Shown piece by piece: positions 1,836-62,017 of a DNA stretch of 64,000 nt. Both the position numbers and the translations under genes were made by a program. A model generated the notes under the pieces. The model was not told the origin of the DNA. It worked only from the letters and a program-made list of their open reading frames with translations, and ran no database searches. Numbering within the stretch: position 1 is the stretch's first letter; every line of letters begins with the position of its first letter. The DNA is from Oscillospiraceae bacterium (GTDB lineage: Bacteria > Bacillota > Clostridia > Oscillospirales > CAG-272), in NCBI GenBank assembly GCA_015064205.1, contig SVSR01000001.1, positions 55,840-119,839 of the forward strand, read 5' to 3'.

Positions 1836-1976
1836 TAATCCCAATTACCTTTTGTGTTCCTACACAGAAGCCTGAAACAGCCGAAATTGCGCGAAACGGC
1901 GGGAGCAAGCCCCCGCCCTACGGCAAATTTGCATGTGCACAGACAGTGGGAACACATTGTCGAATTGGGACTTATT

Positions 1977-3536
1977 TTACCAATATTTTTTATCAAGTGT
2001 GCGATATCGTATAGCTTCCGCAACGTGAGAGTCGCTTATCGTCTCAGAGCCGTCAAGGTCGGCGATTGTTCTCGATACGCGGATAAGCCTGTCGTAACCG
2101 CGAGCCGAAAGGCTTAACTTTTCGTATGCCGCCGAAAGCAGTTTTGATGCGCTCTCGTCAAGATTGCAGAAACGGCGGATATGGCGCTGACCCATCTCTG
2201 AATTTTTGTATATCATCGGTATGTCAGAGGCGGCCTCTTCGCTTGCCTTTCTGTATCGTTCAACTGCAAATTCGCGTGCTTTACATACACGTTTTCGTAT
2301 ACTCTCGGATGATTCCGACGGTATGTTTTTAGACATGTCCTCAAATGAAACCGAAGGAACCTCTATCTGTATGTCGATACGGTCGAGAAGCGGCCCGCTT
2401 ATCTGCGAAAGATACCTGCGGATATCGGCTGGCTTACAGTTGCATTCGTGAGTAGGATGACCAAAGTAGCCGCATTTGCAGGGGTTCATGGCGCATACGA
2501 GCATAAAGGACGATGGGTATGTAAATCTGCCTGCCGTTCTTGTAACGGTAACTTTGCCGTCCTCAAGAGGCTGGCGCAGAGAATCGGTTATTGCTTTTGG
2601 AAATTCTGGCAGCTCGTCGAGAAAAAGTATGCCGTTATGCGCAAGCGAGATCTCGCCGGGCATTGGTATAGAACCGCCGCCGACAAGGCTTGTTGCAGAC
2701 ATTGTGTGGTGCGGTGATCTGAAAGGACGGGTACATACAAGCGAGTGTCCCGGCGTAAGCAGGCCTGAAACAGAGTGAATTTTAGTGGTTTCTATCGCTT
2801 CTTCAAAGCTAAGCTCGGGCAAAATTGTCGGAAGTCTTTTTGCAAGCATGGATTTACCCGTGCCGGGCGGGCCGATAAGCAGCACGTTGTGTCCGCCTGC
2901 GGCGGCTATTTCAAGCGCACGCTTTACCTTTGCCTGACCCTTTACGTCTGAAAAATCAAGCGAGCTTTTTGAAAACTCTGCTTTGAATTTATCTTTATTA
3001 AATGACTGCTTTTCTATAAATTCATGCCCCGTAAGGTGCATAACAAGCCCTCTTGCGTTGCTGACTCCGTACACGTTTATGCCGTCAACAACGGCGGCCT
3101 CGGCGGCATTCGCTTCGGGTACGAAAACGTGCTTAAATCCCGCTTGTTTTGCCGCAAGGCACAGGCAGAGAACACCGTTTACAGGCCTTGTTTCGCCCGA
3201 TAATGAAAGCTCACCTATAAAAACACAGTCGGAAACGTCAATTTCGCGCGGGATCATGCCTGTAACGCTCATTATACCGGCAAGCATGGCCATGTCGTAA
3301 TACGAGCCCTCTTTCTTGCGTGATGCAGGAGCAAGATTTATCATCAGATCAAGCTCGGGGAATATAAATCCGCTGTTTTCGATAGCGGTACGTACGCGCT
3401 GTTTTGCTTCTTTAACTGAGGCATCGGGCAGTCCGACGATCTCAAAATTCGGCAGGCGCTGTGTTGAGTTACATTCGACTGTTACGATAAATCCGTCTAT
3501 TCCTGCAATTCCGGCTGAGTATACGCTTTTAAACAT
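1977..3536 (-). CDS. comM: YifB/ComM family Mg-chelatase-like AAA+ ATPase
   Basis: 519 aa. N-terminal Lon-like domain, Walker A LLIGPPGTGKSML, ChlI-type middle region (GILFLDELPEF) and C-terminal Mg_chelatase_C-like tail. Confidence 0.9.
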   Translation of the reverse strand: MFKSVYSAGIAGIDGFIVTVECNSTQRLPNFEIVGLPDASVKEAKQRVRTAIENSGFIFPELDLMINLAPASRKKEGSYYDMAMLAGIMSVTGMIPREIDVSDCVFIGELSLSGETRPVNGVLCLCLAAKQAGFKHVFVPEANAAEAAVVDGINVYGVSNARGLVMHLTGHEFIEKQSFNKDKFKAEFSKSSLDFSDVKGQAKVKRALEIAAAGGHNVLLIGPPGTGKSMLAKRLPTILPELSFEEAIETTKIHSVSGLLTPGHSLVCTRPFRSPHHTMSATSLVGGGSIPMPGEISLAHNGILFLDELPEFPKAITDSLRQPLEDGKVTVTRTAGRFTYPSSFMLVCAMNPCKCGYFGHPTHECNCKPADIRRYLSQISGPLLDRIDIQIEVPSVSFEDMSKNIPSESSESIRKRVCKAREFAVERYRKASEEAASDIPMIYKNSEMGQRHIRRFCNLDESASKLLSAAYEKLSLSARGYDRLIRVSRTIADLDGSETISDSHVAEAIRYRTLDKKYW

Positions 3537-3640
3537 TGAAGCTTCACCTTTCGGTCAAAATGGTAAAATTTAATTTTATTTCAATAATAATTCTATCATA
3601 GTCAAGAAAATATTACAATAGTTTTGGCAAAAGACCGCTA

Positions 3641-3669
3641 TTGATTTTTGCTGTTGACAATGTTATAAT
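3641..3669 (+). promoter_or_regulatory. Sigma-A-type promoter driving the tandem leader and pyruvyltransferase cassette
   Basis: -35 TTGATT (3641-3646), 17-nt spacer, extended -10 TGtTATAAT (TATAAT at 3664-3669). The predicted TSS of about 3676 coincides with the start of repeat copy 1. Confidence 0.6.
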
Positions 3670-3673
3670 TAGC

Positions 3674-3758
3674 ATATACGGATTTTTGCTATACAAAAAT
3701 CCTGTGAGTTTGCAACTCACCGCGGCCGTGCCTTCCGCGTATGCTAATTGACGGCGTC
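3674..3758 (+). repeat. 85-nt hairpin-rich leader element, copy 1 (candidate cis-regulatory RNA)
   Basis: Direct repeat of 3808-3892 with 79/85 identity. Three consecutive hairpins: GGATTTTTG-CTATA-CAAAAATCC, GTGAGTT-TGC-AACTCAC and CGCGG-N9-CCGCG. Confidence 0.9.
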
Positions 3759-3790
3759 GTAAAAATGCCCTTGCGAGCAAGCATTTTTAC
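3759..3790 (+). other. Inter-repeat stem-loop (10-bp stem GTAAAAATGC/GCATTTTTAC)
   Basis: Perfect 10-bp stem with a 12-nt loop between the two repeat copies. There is no trailing U-tract, so it is not a canonical terminator. Confidence 0.4.
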
Positions 3791-3807
3791 TTCCTGGTAG
3801 AGTTGAT

Positions 3808-3892
3808 ATATACGGATTTTTGCTATACAAAAATCCTGTGAGTTTGCAACTCACCGCGGATGTGTCTGCCGTGTATGCTAATTGACGGTGTC
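3808..3892 (+). repeat. 85-nt hairpin-rich leader element, copy 2
   Basis: The first 52 nt are identical to copy 1. Of the differences, 4 fall in the loop of the third hairpin, 1 converts G:C to G:U in its stem, and 1 is in the tail. It ends about 45 nt before the pyruvyltransferase start. Confidence 0.9.
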
Positions 3893-3942
3893 CTTATTTT
3901 ACTTGAGCTTAAACGTTAAATTTCAATAGGGAGAAAATGACA

Positions 3943-5061
3943 ATGAAAAAGGTCGGCATTTTAACTTTTTCTTATTCAAGCAATCCAGGCTCGGTGTTGC
4001 AGGCATTTTCACTGCAACAGAATATTTCAAAAATGGATAGTGTTGAGGCACAAATAATAAATTATCAAAAGACCAAAGCGGGAAAACCTGTGATAGGCAA
4101 AACAGTTTTTGAGCCGCCTTGTTCAAAGTGGAAACTCAAACAAGTAATTGAATGGACTGCAAGAATTATTGCGCATCCCATACGTATGCATAAGTATGAG
4201 AAATTCTTTAATAAATATTATAAAGGGTATCCTCAGAGACCAATTACAAGAGATGAATTAATCGATATAGAAAAAAATTATGATTGTTTTGTTGTCGGAA
4301 GCGATCAGGTTTGGAACTACGGAAGCTACAATGTGGATGACACTCATTTCCTTGATTTTGTAAAGGATGATAAGAAAAAGATTTCGTACGCGGCAAGCTT
4401 CGGACGAAACGGTGTGCCGGAAAATAAAATTGAAGATGCAAAGAGATTTATATCTGATTTTTCATATATTTCTGTCAGAGAAAAATGCGGCGTTGATATA
4501 GTTTCTGAGCTTACCGGGAAAAATGCAGAATTAGTTTTAGATCCATCCTTGTTAACTGATAAAAGAGAGTATCGTGAGTTTGAAAAGATCCCATTTGCAA
4601 AGAAGTATGTTTTTTTGTATTTGAGAGAAGATTCAAAAGAGCTTACAAAATATGCCGATAAGCTTGCTAAGCTTAAAGGGTTGAAGGTTATAAAGGTTGT
4701 TAAGCACTGGATGTATGGATTAAACGGCAGACCTATATATGCTGTTGGTCCTCAAGAGTGGCTTGGGTACATGGATAATGCTTCATATGTTATAACTAAC
4801 AGTTTTCACGGAATCTGTTTTTCTGTTATATTTGAAAAGGAATTCTTTGTAGGCTTACTCAAAAATGTAAGTGTTGAAACAAATCCGAGAATTTCCGAAA
4901 TCCTTGAGTTGTTTGAAATAAAAGACAGATACATAGATGAAAATTATGATTTTACTGAAATAAAGCCGCTTGATTATTGCCGTATTAATGAAAATAAAGA
5001 GTTGATGAAAAAACAGTCTCTTGATTATCTTTATAATGCAGTAAAACGGAGTGTGAATTAA
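3943..5061 (+). CDS. Polysaccharide pyruvyl transferase family protein
   Basis: The ORF opens at 3937, but the ATG at 3943 is better spaced from the SD GGGAG. Family-like motifs: GILTFSYSSNPGSVLQAFSLQ and FVVGSDQVWN. Confidence 0.85.
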   Translation: MKKVGILTFSYSSNPGSVLQAFSLQQNISKMDSVEAQIINYQKTKAGKPVIGKTVFEPPCSKWKLKQVIEWTARIIAHPIRMHKYEKFFNKYYKGYPQRPITRDELIDIEKNYDCFVVGSDQVWNYGSYNVDDTHFLDFVKDDKKKISYAASFGRNGVPENKIEDAKRFISDFSYISVREKCGVDIVSELTGKNAELVLDPSLLTDKREYREFEKIPFAKKYVFLYLREDSKELTKYADKLAKLKGLKVIKVVKHWMYGLNGRPIYAVGPQEWLGYMDNASYVITNSFHGICFSVIFEKEFFVGLLKNVSVETNPRISEILELFEIKDRYIDENYDFTEIKPLDYCRINENKELMKKQSLDYLYNAVKRSVN

Positions 5062-5062
5062 A

Positions 5063-6238
5063 ATGATCCAGATCTGCAATGATCCTGAAAAATGTACGGG
5101 CTGCGGGGCGTGTGTCAATATTTGCCCCGTAGATGCAGTGAAATTAGAGGAAAATGAATACGGTTTTGTTTATCCTGTAATTTCTGAAGAAAAGTGCATT
5201 GAGTGTAATTTGTGTTCAAAAACCTGCGAAAAAATTTTTGATACAAAACTTTTGGAGCCGTCAAAGGCATACGCGTGTACGATAAAAGATAAGGATATAC
5301 TCATGAAGAGCAGTTCCGGAGGGGTGTTTTCTGCTTTGGCAGAACACGTACTCTCAAATAACGGGGCGGTTTGCGGATGTATATATGATAACACTTTAAA
5401 GCCTGTGCATATTTGCTCAGAAAAGAAAGATGATTATTTATTAATGCGCAAATCCAAGTATGTTCAAAGCGATACGGGACTTGTATACCGCGGTATTAAA
5501 AAAAGGCTCGAAAGGGGACAAGAGGTGTTGTTTACAGCCACTCCGTGTCAGGTTGCTGCTCTTAAGGGATATCTTGGGAAGGATTATGAAAATTTAATAA
5601 GCATTGATTTGATTTGCCACGGCGTTCCTTCCTATGGGATGTTCAGAGAGTTTGTGAAATATCTTGAGAAAAAATACATAACTAAAATAGTGGATTTTGA
5701 TTTTCGCAGTAAAAAGTATACATGGCAACGCTATACCATGGAATTTACCGATTATACAGGCAGAATTAAAAATATCGGTAAAAACGACGAGTTTTATATG
5801 TATGGTTTTTCAATGGGAAATCTCATGAGACCGAGCTGCTTTAAGTGCAGATATGCAACAGAGAAGCGATGCGGAGATGTAACAATTGGGGATTTCTGGG
5901 GACATGACGATTTGAAACTGCCGTGTGATAAGGTTAACGGAATTTCTGTGTGTATGCTGAATACCGAAAAGGCAACAAAATTATCGTGCGTTTTAAAAGG
6001 CAGCATGATAATGGAAGAAGTTGACTATAATGCAGTTGTAAACGGTAATACGTGTTTGCGCCATCCGACGAATAAAGGAATAAAATGGGATAAATATATG
6101 GAGGCGTACAAAAACGGTGGTATCAGCACTCTTGCAAAACAATACAGAAAAAACAATTTTAAAAGCAGGCTGAGAGGAAATATAAAATTACATATGCCTT
6201 TAAAGCTATTTAAATATATAAAAAAAGCATATTTTTAG
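5063..6238 (+). CDS. FrhB/FdhB-like (coenzyme F420 hydrogenase/dehydrogenase beta subunit family) protein with N-terminal 2x[4Fe-4S] ferredoxin domain
   Basis: 391 aa. Two Cys clusters (CTGCGACVNICP and CIECNLCSKTC). The remainder resembles FrhB N- and C-domains. The start lies 1 nt after the upstream stop, suggesting translational coupling. Confidence 0.8.
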   Translation: MIQICNDPEKCTGCGACVNICPVDAVKLEENEYGFVYPVISEEKCIECNLCSKTCEKIFDTKLLEPSKAYACTIKDKDILMKSSSGGVFSALAEHVLSNNGAVCGCIYDNTLKPVHICSEKKDDYLLMRKSKYVQSDTGLVYRGIKKRLERGQEVLFTATPCQVAALKGYLGKDYENLISIDLICHGVPSYGMFREFVKYLEKKYITKIVDFDFRSKKYTWQRYTMEFTDYTGRIKNIGKNDEFYMYGFSMGNLMRPSCFKCRYATEKRCGDVTIGDFWGHDDLKLPCDKVNGISVCMLNTEKATKLSCVLKGSMIMEEVDYNAVVNGNTCLRHPTNKGIKWDKYMEAYKNGGISTLAKQYRKNNFKSRLRGNIKLHMPLKLFKYIKKAYF

Positions 6239-6322
6239 GTTGTATTTATAAAACCGGCTTTTTGCCCCGGCTTGAGACAAGCTTATAATATGCTTATTAG
6301 ATTATTTTAGCAGAGGACAGTT

Positions 6323-6775
6323 ATGAAAACGACAATAAGAATGGTTGTAGTTGTTGCAGCACTGCTTTTAATAACGTTTGTAATGATTTTCGTTATTTCG
6401 TGTGACCAACGAGAAAAGCAGGCAGAGGAAAACCGTTGGCTTACTGTGAGTGAGCAGCTTGAGTTGTACCACATGTCAAATGAAGAATCGATGCGTGACG
6501 ACGAGATTGTAAGTTCTTCTGACAGTAAAGCGGCAATTGGGGCTGAAGCTGTTGCAACGGCTCCTGCAACTGAAGACAAAACAAAAGAAGCGCTTGTTTC
6601 GCAAGTGTCAGGAAAAGAAATTACATACGTGCTCAATACCAACAGCGAAAAATTCCACAAGCCCGACTGTTCAAGCGTGTCTACCATGAAGAATGAAAAC
6701 AGACGTGATTTTTACGGTACACGTGAAGAGGTAATGGCGATGAATTATGATCCGTGCGGCAGATGCAAGCCGTAA
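6323..6775 (+). CDS. Small membrane-anchored or lipoprotein with C-terminal Ada-type Zn-binding motif
   Basis: 150 aa. Signal/TM segment ending FVISC. The C-terminus KFHKPDCSSV...DPCGRCKP matches the Ada_Zn_binding pattern FH-P-C...PC-RC-P. Confidence 0.6.
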   Translation: MKTTIRMVVVVAALLLITFVMIFVISCDQREKQAEENRWLTVSEQLELYHMSNEESMRDDEIVSSSDSKAAIGAEAVATAPATEDKTKEALVSQVSGKEITYVLNTNSEKFHKPDCSSVSTMKNENRRDFYGTREEVMAMNYDPCGRCKP

Positions 6776-6793
6776 TTATATAAGGAGAGAGAC

Positions 6794-7015
6794 ATGAAAA
6801 ATCAAAGGACGATAACAGTAAGAATAAGTGAAGATCTTCTTGCAAAGCTTGCATACGTGAGCGAGAGCGAGGGGCGTACTCTTAATAATCAGTTTTTACT
6901 TTTGGCACGTAACAGCGTTGCTTATTTTGAAAAGAATAAGGGACGTATAGACAACACAAAAGCAAATAGCGCACTTGAAAAGCTTGACTGTATTGTTGAC
7001 ACATCTGAAGAGTAA
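6794..7015 (+). CDS. Ribbon-helix-helix (Arc/CopG-like) DNA-binding protein
   Basis: 73 aa. ITVRISEDLLAKLAYVSESEGRTLNNQFLLLARN fits the RHH strand-helix-helix pattern. SD GGAGAG lies upstream. Confidence 0.6.
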   Translation: MKNQRTITVRISEDLLAKLAYVSESEGRTLNNQFLLLARNSVAYFEKNKGRIDNTKANSALEKLDCIVDTSEE

Positions 7016-7205
7016 AATTTTTAAAAATACAGAAAAAGGACGATTTCAGGAGAAAATATGTAATTTTTTCGTAAATTTGTTTCAAATGTTTGCAAATACA
7101 TCTTTACTTTTTACTTAAAAAATGTTATTATATATTGGAATGTGCTCACAGAGCCGTTTTATATTGTTTAATTAAATTATCTTAATATACAGGAGGAAAC
7201 AAAAC

Positions 7206-10200
7206 ATGGCAAGAAGAAAAATCTCCATGGACGGTAACACCGCTGCCGCGCACGTAAGCTACGCGTTTACGGAAGTTGCCGGAATCTATCCTATCACTCC
7301 CTCCAGCCCTATGGCGGAAGTGACAGACACATGGTCGGCTAACGACAAGAATATCTTCGGCGAGCCTGCAAGAAACATCTTCGGCGAAAGAGTCAAGATG
7401 ATCGAAATGCAGTCCGAAGCAGGTGCGGCTGGTACCGTACACGGAAGCCTTGCAGCCGGCGCTCTTACTACTACATACACTGCATCTCAGGGTCTGCTTC
7501 TCATGATCCCGAACATGTATAAGATCGCAGGTGAGCTTCTCCCTTGCGTAATTCATGTATCTGCTCGTTGCGTAGCATCTCACGCCCTCAACATTTTCGG
7601 CGATCACTCTGACGTATATGCATGCCGTCAGACCGGTTTTGCTATGCTTGCTGAGTCCAATCCTCAGGAAGTAATGGACCTTGGCGCTGTTGCTCACCTT
7701 GCAACAATCAAGGGCCGTGTACCTTTCCTCAACTTCTTTGACGGTTTCCGTACATCTCACGAGATCCAGAAGATCGAAGCATGGGAAACAGAAGACCTCA
7801 AGGAAATGGTTGATATGGACGCTATCGCACAGTTCCGTGCACGTGCAATCAACCCTGAACACCCCGTTCTCCGCGGTTCTGCAGAAAACGGCGACATCTT
7901 CTTCCAGCACAGAGAAGCATGCAACAGATACTATGATGCACTTCCCGCAATCGTTGAAGAATACATGGATAAGGTAAACGCTAAGATCGGTACCGACTAT
8001 AAGCTCTTCAACTACTACGGCGCAAAGGATGCAGACAGAGTTATTATCGCTATGGGCTCTATCTGTGACGTTGCTGAAGAAGTTATCGACTACATGCTCG
8101 CAAACGGCGAAAAGGTTGGTCTTATCAAGGTTAGACTTTACAGACCTTTCGCAGCTGATAAGCTTATCGAAGCTATCCCTGCAACTGCAACAAAGATCGC
8201 AGTTCTTGACAGAACAAAGGAACCTGGCTCACTCGGCGAGCCTCTCTACCTCGACGTTGTTACAGCTCTTGCAACACACGGTGTAAAGAAGACGGTAGTC
8301 GGCGGACGTTACGGACTCGGTTCTAAGGATACAACTCCTGCATCTGTATTTGCAGTATTCAATAACCTCGCAAAAGACGAACCCAAGAACAACTTCACAA
8401 TCGGTATCGTGGATGACGTAACAGGTCTTTCTCTTGAAGAAACAGTTGCTCCCGATACAGCTCCTGCAGGCACAATTGCTTGTAAGTTCTGGGGTCTCGG
8501 CGGCGACGGTACTGTTGGTGCAAACAAGAACTCCATCAAGATTCTTGGTGACCACACAGACAAGTACGTTCAGGCATACTTCCAGTACGACTCCAAGAAG
8601 ACCGGCGGTGTAACAATTTCTCACCTCCGTTTCGGCGACCAGCCCATCAAGAGCCCGTACTACATCACAAAGGCAAACTTCGTTGCCTGCCATAACCCTG
8701 CATACATCTTAAGCGGTTATAAGATCGTAAACGACGTTAAGCCGGGCGGAACATTCCTTCTCGACTGCCAGTGGGACGCAGCACAGCTTGAAGAAAAGCT
8801 TCCTGCATCCGTAAAGAGCTACATCGCAAACAACGACGTTCAGTTCTACACGATCGACGCTACTTCAATAGCTATCAAGGAAGTTGGTAACGCAAAGGTT
8901 AAGAATACAATACTTCAGGCAGCGTTCTTTGCTCTTGCAAAGGTTATGCCTATCGACGAAGCTGTTGAATACATGAAGAAGGCAGCTACAAAGTCATACT
9001 CCAAGTTCGGTGACGCAGTTGTTGCTCAGAACCACAAGGCTATCGAAATGGGCGCAGGTGCACTTGTTAAGGTTGACGTTCCTGCAGCTTGGAAGAATGC
9101 CGGCGAAAGCGCTCCCGAAGCACCTGCAACAGGCACACGTCCCGAGCTCGTTGACTTCGTTAACAAGATCGTTAAGCCCGTATCCAAGATGGACGGTGAT
9201 TCACTCCCCGTTTCCGCATTTGCTGATATGGCTGACGGTACATTCCCGCAGGGCTCATCCGCTTACGAAAAGCGCGGCGTTGCAGTAAGCGTTCCTGTAT
9301 GGCATGCTGAAAACTGCATCCAGTGTAACAACTGTGCGTTTGTATGTCCTCACGCAGCTATCCGTCCCTTCGCTATGAGCGAAGAAGAAGCTGCTAATGC
9401 TCCTGCAAGCACAAAGTTCACAGAAAAGCCTGCTATGCAGACAAATTATAAGTTCACAATGGCAATAAGCCCGCTTGACTGTATGGGTTGTACGCTTTGC
9501 GTAAAGGCATGCCCCGTAACAGCAAAGGCTATCAAGGACGGCACAGACAAGAAGGCTATCGAAATGGTATCCAAGGATTCTCAGCTCGAACAGCAGGCAG
9601 CATTTGACTATGCAGTTGCAAACGTTGCTGAAAAAGAACTTCCTTACAAGCCCGATTCAGTTAAGGGCAGCCAGTTCAAGCAGCCGCTTCTCGAATTCTC
9701 CGGCTCTTGCGCAGGATGTGCTGAAACATCTTATGCACGTCTTATCACACAGCTCTTCGGTGAAAGAATGTACATCTCAAACGCAACAGGTTGTTCTTCA
9801 ATCTGGGGCGGCTCGGCACCTGCTACACCTTACACCGTAAACCGTGAAAGCGGACGCGGTCCCGCATGGGCAAACTCACTCTTCGAAGATAACGCAGAAC
9901 ATGGTCTCGGTATGGCTCTCGGTCAGGGCGCTATCCGCGAAAAGCTTATCTCTAAGGTTGAAGAAATGGCTAAGTCCGACAAGGCAAGCGATACATTCAA
10001 GGCAGCTGCTGAAGAATATCTTGCTACAAAGGACGACGGTAAGGCTAACGAAAAGGCTACAAAGGTACTCGTTGCAGAGCTTGAAAAGGCAGCTGCAGCA
10101 GGATGCCCCACAGCTCCCGCTATCCTTGCTGAAAAGGATTACCTCTCCAAGAAGTCCGTATGGATCTTCGGTGGTGACGGTTGGGCATACGATATCGGTT

Positions 10201-41643: not shown

Positions 41644-41719
41644 AGGGGTATAGCTCAGTTGGTAGAGCAGCGGTCTCCAAAACCGCGTGTCCAGAGTTCG
41701 AGTCTTTGTGCCCCTGCCA
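41644..41719 (+). tRNA. trnW: tRNA-Trp (anticodon CCA)
   Basis: Hand-folded cloverleaf. Acceptor AGGGGTA/TGCCCCT, D arm GCTC/GAGC, anticodon stem GCGGT/ACCGC with loop CTCCAAA, T arm CAGAG-TTCGAGT-CTTTG, and an encoded CCA. Confidence 0.93.
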
Positions 41720-46696: not shown

Positions 46697-47839
46697 ATGG
46701 CAGAAAAACGGGATTATTATGAGGTGCTCGGGCTTCAAAAGGGAGCAGACGACGCGGCTATAAAAAAAGCATATAAGACGCTTGCAAAAAAATATCATCC
46801 CGATCTTAATCCGAACAATCCCGAGGCGGAGGAAAAGTTCAAGGAGATCAACGAAGCTTACGGCGTGCTTTCGGATAACGATAAAAAAGCGCAGTACGAC
46901 AGATACGGTCACGCGGCGTTTGATCCGGGTTCCGGCTTTGGCGGCTCAGGCTTCGGCGGTTTCGGAGGCTTTGGGGGATTTGGCGACGATATTGATCTGT
47001 CTGATATATTCTCGAGCTTTTTCGGAGGCGGCGGACAGTCGGGTGCACGCAGACGCGGACCTGTAAGAGGCGACGATATACTTCAGAGAGTTATCGTTTC
47101 CTTTGAAGAAGCGGCTTTCGGATGCAAAAAGGAAATAGAATTTAACCGTATAGAAGAATGCCCTGACTGCTCTGCAACGGGCGCTCAGAAGGGAACTTCG
47201 CCCGAAACGTGTACTGTCTGCTCGGGTACGGGTCAGGTAAGACGCACGCAGAGAACACCTCTCGGTATGATGCAGACAACGGGGCAGTGCGATGCGTGTC
47301 GGGGACGCGGTAAGATAATCAAGAACCCGTGTAACAATTGCCGCGGTACGGGCTATATAAGAATAAAGAAGAAACTTGAGGTATCGATCCCTGCCGGAAT
47401 TGACGACGGACAGAGAGTTGCTATACGTGCTCAGGGTGACGTTGGACGTCAGGGCGGACAGACGGGAGATCTTATAATAACTGTATCTGTCAGACCTCAC
47501 CATATATTTGAGCGCGACGGTTACAATATATACTGTAATATACCGATCACGTTCTCGCAGGCGGCGCTCGGAGCAGAGATAAACGTACCGACTCTTGACG
47601 GAGGAACTACTTATAAGATACCCGAAGCAACGCAGACGGGAACGCAGTTTTCTATAAAGGGCAAGGGTATAAACAAGCTTGAATACAAGGGTACGGGTGA
47701 TCTTTATTTCACCGTTACAGTACAAACTCCGAAAAATCTCAGCGCAGAGCAAAAGGAGCTTTTGAAAAAGCTTGAACAGACCCTTGAAGCAGAAGGCTCC
47801 AAGGACGGATTTTTCAAAAAATTCAAGGGCAAAAAATAA
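46697..47839 (+). CDS. dnaJ: Molecular chaperone DnaJ
   Basis: 380 aa. J-domain (DYYEVLGL...KYHPDLNP), G/F-rich linker and four CxxCxGxG zinc motifs. Confidence 0.97.
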
Positions 47840-47862
47840 AAGGGCATAACGGAGAGTTATTT

Positions 47863-50473: not shown

Positions 50474-50500
50474 AATTTATAAAAAAAATCAAAAAAACTA

Positions 50501-50529
50501 TTGAAAAATCACAAAAATTGTTGTAAAAT
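50501..50529 (+). promoter_or_regulatory. Candidate sigma-A promoter of the PucR-type regulator gene
   Basis: TTGAAA (50501-50506), 17-nt spacer, TAAAAT (50524-50529). Confidence 0.4.
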
Positions 50530-61833: not shown

Positions 61834-61908
61834 TGGTGACCCGTACGGGAATCGAACCCATGTTACAGCCGTGAAAGGGCCGTGTCTTAACCGCTTGACC
61901 AACGGGCC
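61834..61908 (-). tRNA. trnE: tRNA-Glu (anticodon UUC)
   Basis: Reverse complement reads GGCCCGT-TG-GTCAAGCGGTTAAGAC-A-CGGCC-CTTTCAC-GGCTG-TAAC-ATGGG-TTCGATT-CCCGT-ACGGGTC-A-CCA. It forms a 75-nt cloverleaf. Confidence 0.92.
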
Positions 61909-61940: not shown

Positions 61941-62017
61941 TGGTAGCGGAAATAGGATTTGAACCTATGACCTGCCGGGTATGAACCGGATGCTCTGGCC
62001 AGCTGAGCTATTCCGCC
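61941..62017 (-). tRNA. trnM: tRNA-Met, elongator type (anticodon CAU)
   Basis: Reverse complement reads GGCGGAA-TA-GCTCAGCTGGCCAGAGC-A-TCCGG-TTCATAC-CCGGC-AGGTC-ATAGG-TTCAAAT-CCTAT-TTCCGCT-A-CCA. G1:U72 and the GGCGG...CGGTTCATACCCG pattern resemble the Bacillus elongator tRNA-Met. Ile2 (lysidine) cannot be excluded. Confidence 0.88.

Follow-up and report, generated by a model that had tools for sequence, protein, structure and literature searches.

The window, the 64,000-nt stretch of DNA that was analyzed, derives from an uncultured Ruminococcaceae/Oscillospiraceae MAG and opens with a gene for NusG (positions 6-560) directly upstream of the genes for ribosomal proteins L11 and L1, the order in the related genome L011 being SecE-NusG-L11-L1. 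A YifB/ComM-type Mg-chelatase-like AAA ATPase, used here as the synteny anchor, is encoded on the minus strand at 1977-3536, and the two genes of interest diverge from it on the plus strand. The first (3943-5061) encodes a polysaccharide pyruvyl transferase (PF04230, E = 6e-35) that is 100% identical to the 372-amino-acid (aa) protein P0001, and the second (5063-6238) encodes an FrhB/FdhB-like 4Fe-4S protein, a constant partner of the pyruvyltransferase gene; this pair is also found in L005/L006. Two small hypothetical genes and a PFOR gene lie downstream. A previous sequence-only reading had announced an exopolysaccharide-modification cassette, with the correction here that the cassette consists of two genes only. 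The pyruvyltransferase reading frame opens at ATG 3937, but ATG 3943 is the likelier start, since it is spaced 9 nt rather than 3 nt from the Shine-Dalgarno (SD) sequence. There is no regulator gene inside or beside the cassette. Nor does a specialized NusG paralogue occur in or beside these two genes, which speaks against the LoaP- or RfaH-style leader that had been entertained for this locus.

A sigma-70-type promoter-like site precedes the cassette on the plus strand at 3641-3669, with TTGATT as its -35 element (3641-3646), a 17-nt spacer, and the extended -10 element TGtTATAAT (3661-3669). It agrees with the consensus at 10 of 12 positions, plus the upstream TG, so that the near-consensus promoter sequence described previously is upheld. 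From the position of this site, transcription is expected to start at about 3675-3678. The -35 region and the sequence upstream of it are conserved in four related genomes (L009, L010, L011, and L025). Between the promoter-like site and the genes lies a tandem repeat, as had been reported for the whole 5' leader of the cassette, although the leader is better taken to end before 3943 than before 3937.

A repeat search of the window returns a direct repeat of 98 nt (3661-3758 and 3795-3892) with 88% identity and a spacing of 134 nt. Within it are the two 85-nt copies that had been recognized by eye, copy 1 at 3674-3758 and copy 2 at 3808-3892 on the plus strand, and both the repeat search and alignment confirm their extent and their period of 134 nt. 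The copies score 118.8 and 112.7 bits, respectively, against a covariance model built from the pair, and a 31-nt core of the repeat has no chance matches in 100 shuffles. Similarity between the two copies does not extend significantly into the upstream and flanking sequences (local alignment, shuffle P = 0.55 and 0.40), placing the limits of the repeated unit at about 3672-3758. A degenerate extended -10-like sequence, TGGTAGAGT (3795-3803, plus strand), stands at the same offset to copy 2 as TGTTATAAT does to copy 1.

The copies differ at 6 of the 85 positions, and the differences are distributed as first described: four are in the third hairpin's 9-nt loop (3726, 3727, 3731, and 3734), one converts a G:C pair of its stem to G:U (3738), and one is in the tail (3755). 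Five of the six fall within 14 nt (3725-3738), and there are no mismatches in the 53-nt block that contains the first two hairpins (3672-3724) or in a 16-nt segment of the tail (3739-3754). A second strain (L028/L030, 99.4% nucleotide identity) also has the tandem repeat, and the sole single-nucleotide polymorphism (SNP) in its leader, in copy 2 of L028 at position 3860, is again in the loop of the third hairpin. The L028/L030 contigs break inside the repeat, which is attributable to the tandem pair itself.

Folding confirms the three hairpins that had been proposed for each copy, all with perfect stems (of 9, 7, and 5 bp) and all recurring at +134. In copy 1, P2 pairs GGATTTTTG with CAAAAATCC (3680-3688/3694-3702) around a 5-nt loop, P3 pairs GTGAGTT with AACTCAC (3704-3710/3714-3720) around a 3-nt loop, P4 pairs CGCGG with CCGCG (3721-3725/3735-3739), and a tail follows at 3740-3758. 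The corresponding helices of copy 2 are P2 at 3814-3822/3828-3836, P3 at 3838-3844/3848-3854, and P4 at 3855-3859/3869-3873, preceded by a closing helix, P1, at 3801-3813/3871-3883 (G-U pairs included). P2 and P3 are perfect dyads devoid of G-U pairs, and their loops (L2 and L3), like the tail segment, have the same sequence in both copies. The predicted folds are more stable than those of shuffled sequences, with z-scores of -3.4 for copy 1, -2.5 for copy 2, and -5.3 for the whole leader; P2 alone (-9.3 kcal/mol) has a z-score of -5.85. On the minus strand, P3 together with a run of U scores as terminator-like.

The tail of copy 1 had been thought to pair partly with the 5' end of the unit. 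Such pairing exists but is not partial: the full 10 bp form between AATTAGCATA (3667-3676) and TATGCTAATT (3740-3749), so that each unit can close as a four-way junction, and this is the minimum free energy structure of copy 1 (-32.2 kcal/mol). In copy 1, the 5' arm of P1 shares 3 nt with the -10 box and reaches no farther than the expected start of transcription (about 3676), and the arm should therefore be absent from the RNA. In copy 2, P1 still pairs although its 5' arm differs at 4 of 10 positions. The linkers of the junction are 3, 1, 0, and 0 nt long; with so few unpaired nucleotides and helices that are all perfect, it would be ill suited to form a pocket for a metabolite.

Comparison of the two copies and of a single, incomplete variant from another strain yields no double-sided compensatory changes, four one-sided changes to G-U, and one broken pair, and thus the compensatory substitutions sought as support for the structure are lacking in this set. 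Nevertheless, 4 of the 5 stem positions that changed between copies retain pairing as G-U, which is possible only in the plus-strand RNA, with the reservation that a 4:1 bias is not significant (binomial test, P ~ 0.19).

The leader offers two putative expression platforms. The first is a hairpin between the copies (3759-3790, GTAAAAATGC..GCATTTTTAC) with a 10-bp stem and flanking A and T tracts that give it the shape of a weak bidirectional terminator; the stem that had been noted here is present, though weak, and was flagged as terminator-like on the minus strand. Its folding energy of -10.3 kcal/mol (z = -1.6) falls to -2.1 kcal/mol (z = +0.2) when the A/U tracts are removed. The second is a possible SD-occluding helix (3891-3933, plus strand), in which UCCUUAUU (3891-3898) pairs with AAUAGGGA (3925-3932). 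In the fold prediction the SD sequence, AGGGAG at 3928-3933, has an unpaired probability of only 0.01 to 0.06, but the energy of the helix (-8.3 kcal/mol, z = -0.44) is at chance level. Both putative platforms thus appear to be no better than shuffled sequence. The leader contains no small open reading frame (ORF) with an SD sequence or a hydrophobic product, and a reading as a leader peptide or type I toxin was rejected on these grounds.

Both copies of the repeat and both genes of the cassette reside in a strain-specific insertion of low G+C content, 2,672 nt in length (3650-6321), which also includes the -10 box. A contig from the same species (L025, ComM 99% identical) aligns with the window at 97.7% over 1972-3649 and at 95.1% over 6322-7375, and in place of 3650-6321 it has 49 nt; its identity with the window ends at 3649, and it represents the empty site. 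The G+C content is 0.33 to 0.39 inside the insertion, as opposed to 0.46 to 0.51 on its flanks. The empty site and the low G+C content together indicate that the tandem element belongs to a strain-specific foreign insertion. Judged by this alignment, the left breakpoint (3649/3650) is inside the spacer of the conserved promoter: the -35 element is resident, the -10 element came with the insert, and the spacing between them is 17 nt. The repeat begins within about 25 nt of this breakpoint. Derivation of the first 25 nt or so of copy 1 from the native leader and start region of L025 was considered but dismissed as too weak (P = 0.008, uncorrected for six tests).

On the far side of the cassette, a diverged second copy of the promoter region is present at 6250-6304 on the plus strand (TTATAAT at 6282-6288; aligned to 3631-3685, shuffle P = 0.009), where it precedes the native 150-aa gene at 6323. 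Such a copy would be expected if the cassette had entered by recombination through a promoter-like segment. Sister species (ComM 85 to 87% identical) keep the order L1 gene (rplA), ComM, promoter, small genes, and PFOR, with neither the cassette nor the repeat at the syntenic locus; in two of these species an aldose epimerase occupies the cassette position. Recurrence upstream of pyruvyltransferase genes, which had been suggested as a check, did not hold: the element is absent upstream of the three closest homologues (74%, 77%, and 70% aa identity; n = 3), all of which have short, ordinary leaders. The 74% homologue is from an Oscillospiraceae MAG in which a small HTH_26 gene immediately precedes this gene pair.

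Searches for relatives were uniformly negative. At gathering thresholds, Rfam 15 identifies only three tRNAs in the whole window and nothing at the repeat, with no match to riboswitch or leader families (including purine, c-di-GMP, glycine, ZTP, guanidine, preQ1, T-box, and epsC/EAR), in keeping with the earlier failure to match the sequence to a known riboswitch or leader. Relaxing the threshold to E <= 10 over 3500-4000 and 3795-3895 returned noise only, with two such matches in 3500-4000. One candidate, Clostridiales-1 (RF01699), was rejected: it matches copy 1 only, on the minus strand, at 15.7 bits against a gathering threshold of 48 (E = 0.71), and the 101-nt search of copy 2 gave no match at E <= 10. 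This alignment deletes 50 and 40 of the 166 model positions, as well as the GGGAG/CGgAg internal loop. The reverse complement of the element scores 15.5 bits on the element's own two-copy model, indicating that scores of about 15 bits follow from the palindromic topology alone. A tRNA-like reading was likewise set aside, ARAGORN finding nothing in 3500-4000.

The two-copy covariance model (R1, Infernal), run with filters off on the window and related loci and with default filters on pattern matches, detected the two known copies, a partial copy in L028, and nothing else; with filters off, the 64 kb yields no third copy. Exact-pattern scans returned one unrelated GC-rich hairpin in IMG/VR (three scans), one chance match inside a GC-rich ORF in JGI metagenomes, and ten chance matches in high-GC Actinobacteria and Proteobacteria among 185,579 GTDB species genomes; these scans accept exact matches only, such that diverged relatives would escape them, and they did not return the source species itself, which is evidently absent from the genome and metagenome sets covered. 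Searches of plasmids and phages (blastn, word size 11) gave nothing relevant, six-frame peptides of the element had no matches among 5.8 billion proteins, and the open minus-strand frame matched only three unrelated repeat proteins among 1.84 billion representatives (phmmer). Sites resembling P2 or P3 do not exceed chance in the 64 kb. Sub-terminal inverted repeats (ATATACGG..CCGYGTAT) coincide with P1, with no clear target-site duplication. Homologues scattered through genomes had been named as an outcome that would count against a regulatory role; none were found, nor were homologues of any kind, in the collections searched. On these sequence comparisons, the element is an undescribed orphan known from one strain lineage and is not a member of any conserved RNA family. 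Its restriction to one lineage and to a recently acquired insert means that there is no evidence for a conserved class of regulatory RNA.

The best explanation, though a tentative one that falls short of probable, is that the copies constitute a young, lineage-restricted, cis-acting leader RNA of the plus strand that affects stability or expression level and does not represent a ligand-sensing riboswitch family. A horizontally acquired two-gene cassette would have entered by recombination just downstream of the -35 element in a promoter that is conserved on the chromosome, and transcription from TTGATT/TGtTATAAT would begin at about 3676, in effect where the repeated unit starts. The RNA would then open with the 9-bp P2 hairpin, 3 to 4 nt from its 5' end, and hairpins so placed are known to protect Firmicute mRNAs against 5'-end-dependent decay. 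Copy 1 would supply P3, P4, and a free tail, followed by the weak A/U-flanked hairpin, and copy 2, being fully transcribed, could close a complete four-way junction. We infer that the module determines the stability of the transcript and its level of expression, and a protein or RNA acting in trans may bind to its repeated units. Mutually exclusive pairings could involve the 16-nt tails, which are identical, and the arm that precedes copy 2.

Several observations are consistent with such a leader RNA. The promoter-like site fires into the repeat, whose core starts at the predicted +1; the hairpins are highly nonrandom; differences in the core are clustered, with the strain SNP again in the P4 loop; 4 of the 5 changed stem positions pair as G-U in plus-strand RNA only; P1 of copy 2 pairs despite 4 differences in its 10-nt arm; and the tandem arrangement recurs in the second strain at 99.4% identity. 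Against it, there is no homologue in anything searched and hence no covariation, homologous pyruvyltransferase genes do without the element, and the G-U bias is not significant. Perfect palindromes would suit roles at the DNA level equally well, the P1 arm of copy 1 falls in the promoter, the intercopy hairpin and SD helix are at shuffle level, and the minus strand of P3 with its U-run resembles a terminator. With regard to the proposal of a cis-regulatory RNA, a lineage-specific leader is plausible from its position, promoter, and G-U substitutions, whereas a conserved riboswitch or antitermination family is unsupported, and the evidence leans against it. The element is probably not a metabolite-binding aptamer.

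Perfect palindromes at the edge of an insertion also admit a reading in which the repeat has little or no function, having arisen by local duplication at the junction of cassette and promoter, with donor-derived hairpins (former terminators or operators, for example) being tolerated in the leader. This is somewhat unlikely. In its favor, the repeat lies within about 25 nt of the breakpoint, a diverged duplicate of the promoter region stands beyond the cassette (P = 0.009), the inserted DNA is strain specific and foreign in composition, every close homologue lacks the element, the minus strand scores as terminator-like, and the expression platforms are at chance level. However, adjacent perfect stems of 9, 7, and 5 bp would be very improbable without past selection or a specific mechanism, neutral decay would scatter the differences between copies rather than confine most of them to one loop, and both copies are retained in two strains. 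The dyads could alternatively act in DNA, with P2 (GGATTTTTG-N5-CAAAAATCC) and P3 (GTGAGTT-N3-AACTCAC) binding a dimeric factor at about +4 to +45, duplicated for cooperative repression, and with the regulator encoded elsewhere. Their perfection, without a G-U pair in P2 or P3, their position immediately 3' of the start specified by the promoter-like site, and the HTH_26 gene directly upstream of the gene pair in the 74% homologue would all fit operators, yet this reading is unlikely: the cassette has no regulator gene in or beside it, the three dyads differ from one another rather than repeating one operator, the 64 kb holds no additional P2- or P3-like sites beyond chance, and the changes in P1 and P4 preserve pairing in RNA but not in DNA. 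Most improbable of all is a small mobile element or dispersed repeat (MITE, PATE, or REP-like) that landed here twice. Such an origin would account for the compactness of a palindromic unit of about 87 nt, for its sub-terminal inverted repeats and its location where an insertion borders the chromosome, and for metagenome contigs that break within the element, but the tandem pair explains those breaks, no transposase or clear target-site duplication accompanies the unit, and no other copy appears in the 64 kb, in related loci, or in the scans of genomes, metagenomes, viral sequences, plasmids, phages, and protein-space ORFs.

Of the readings that, like a leader RNA, invoke a transcript, one is the tandem riboswitch or antitermination leader proposed at first, a new riboregulator responsive to a ligand or a protein; copy 1 would govern a terminator at 3759-3790 and copy 2 would govern access to the SD sequence. 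A hairpin and U-tract do accompany one copy and an SD-pairing segment the other, L2, L3, and the tail are invariant, and no Rfam family matches. This reading is nonetheless distinctly unlikely, as conservation of the element is seen neither with the gene nor between species, linkers of 3, 1, 0, and 0 nt between perfect stems leave little room for a pocket, the terminator core (-2.1 kcal/mol, z = +0.2) and SD helix (z = -0.44) are unexceptional, use of the predicted promoter would deprive copy 1 of P1, and no specialized NusG paralogue is nearby, the NusG gene at 6-560 adjoining those for L11 and L1. Quite improbable, too, is a newborn four-way-junction riboregulator, arisen or captured at the junction of cassette and promoter, then tandemly duplicated, and the founding member of an undescribed class; the binding of a ligand, protein, or RNA would in that event switch the competing tail and arm pairings and so control the glycan-pyruvylation cassette. 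A stand-alone small RNA (sRNA) of about 115 nt, consisting of copy 1 with its own promoter and the 3759-3790 terminator, would make copy 2 a decayed duplicate; a variant places a distantly Clostridiales-1-like RNA on the minus strand. The promoter, the structured core, and the intercopy hairpin with its T-run do make a compact unit, the 5' half of this hairpin is missing from copy 2, and the weak RF01699 match shares the four-way topology. Still, an sRNA is very unlikely: its terminator is weak, the downstream genes would be left without a good promoter, and the minus-strand version must contend with 15.7 bits against 48 (E = 0.71), an unmatched copy 2, and a reverse complement that reaches 15.5 bits by topology alone.

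If the young leader RNA that we favor is functional, it would show how an acquired cassette gains control of its expression behind a resident promoter, and it would provide a compact four-way-junction module for tests of RNA stability or factor binding. As it stands, the element is a single-lineage curiosity of an uncultured rumen or gut Oscillospiraceae MAG that opens no general question, and since it has no known relatives, comparative analysis cannot develop it further.

Among known systems, Clostridiales-1 (RF01699; Weinberg et al. 2010, PMC2864571) likewise has a closing helix around three hairpins and a GGAUU...AAUCCGU pair of segments beside the closing stem, and its taxonomic range (Clostridiales, gut) fits, but the resemblance is on the opposite strand, reaches 15.7 bits rather than 48, deletes about 90 of 166 positions, and leaves copy 2 unmatched. 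Tandem riboswitches (glycine, tandem c-di-GMP, and TPP) also place two near-identical units in series, each with a potential expression element. Unlike them, the present element matches no aptamer family or Rfam entry, has perfect helices and a nearly linker-free junction, is absent from homologous genes, and has expression platforms at chance. Its length (about 85 to 100 nt), abundance of hairpins, and intergenic position at an insert border recall BOX, RUP, ERIC, REP, MITE, and PATE elements, from which it differs in having two adjacent copies only, with no dispersed copies in our searches. Structured leaders with stabilizing 5'-proximal stem-loops occur in Firmicutes, as in the leaders of aprE and ermC. 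Although it has no sequence relationship to these, is tandem, may form a four-way junction, and has a stabilizing effect that is predicted, the leader described here resembles them in its stable P2, positioned 3 to 4 nt from the predicted 5' end, and in the additional hairpins that precede its SD sequence.

The low-G+C segment at 3650-6321 (33-39% versus 46-51%), which comprises the pyruvyltransferase/FrhB-like gene pair and its leader, is a strain-specific insertion. A conspecific contig without the cassette (L025) has just 49 nt in its place, and the sister species carry either an aldose-1-epimerase gene or nothing at this site. Because its contents vary in this way, the interval between the divergent ComM-type ATPase gene and the downstream PFOR gene is a small variable hotspot.

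The promoter region occurs twice, in diverged form, on either side of the cassette (3631-3685 and 6250-6304; shuffle P of about 0.009), with an upstream AAGACCG, a T-run, GACAA, and TTATAAT common to both copies. This duplication suggests that the cassette entered by a Campbell-type event via a promoter-like segment. Owing to the copy at 6250-6304, the native 150-aa gene keeps its own -10 box. The gene for the small hypothetical protein adjoining the cassette (6323-6775) is ~95% identical overall to its counterpart in L025 (601-1056), but the N terminus of the product differs between strains (MKTTIRM... in the window versus MQTTMKR... in L025), placing the right recombination breakpoint at the start codon.

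Two starts have been assigned to the pyruvyltransferase: 3943 in the JGI gene call (372 aa) and 3937 in NCBI record MBE6605463.1 (374 aa). The Shine-Dalgarno sequence AGGGAG (in the region 3928-3945) lies 3 nt ahead of the ATG at 3937 and 9 nt ahead of that at 3943. At the locus of the closest homologous cassette (L005, 74% amino acid identity), a 67-aa HTH_26 (XRE-type) gene at 1740-1943 immediately precedes the pyruvyltransferase gene, which hints that the pair may be under protein regulation elsewhere.

Within the leader, CTGGTAGAGTTG (3795-3806) directly precedes copy 2 of the repeat. It contains a degenerate extended -10 (TGGTAGAGT) and is also loosely ops-like (GGTAGnnTG, with one additional T); the sequence may act as a sigma-dependent pause site, or the resemblance may be mere chance.

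Five short-read metagenome contigs of this species (L002, L003, L004, L028, and L030) repeatedly end within a 52-nt stretch that is identical in both copies. The tandem repeat thus fragments assemblies, and copy-number variation would therefore go undetected. Two other short tandem repeats, both intergenic and A-rich, lie at 47815-47846 and 50484-50529 (periods of 15 and 20).

The only gathering-level Rfam matches in the whole window are three tRNA genes (41644-41716, 61837-61908, and 61944-62017). A weak Rfam match to Clostridiales-1 RNA (15.7 bits, E = 0.71) overlaps copy 1 on the minus strand (3670-3746) and is not reproduced in copy 2. Clostridiales-1 RNA and the minus strand of copy 1 have a four-way topology in common and share GGAUU/AAUCCGU adjoining the closing stem.
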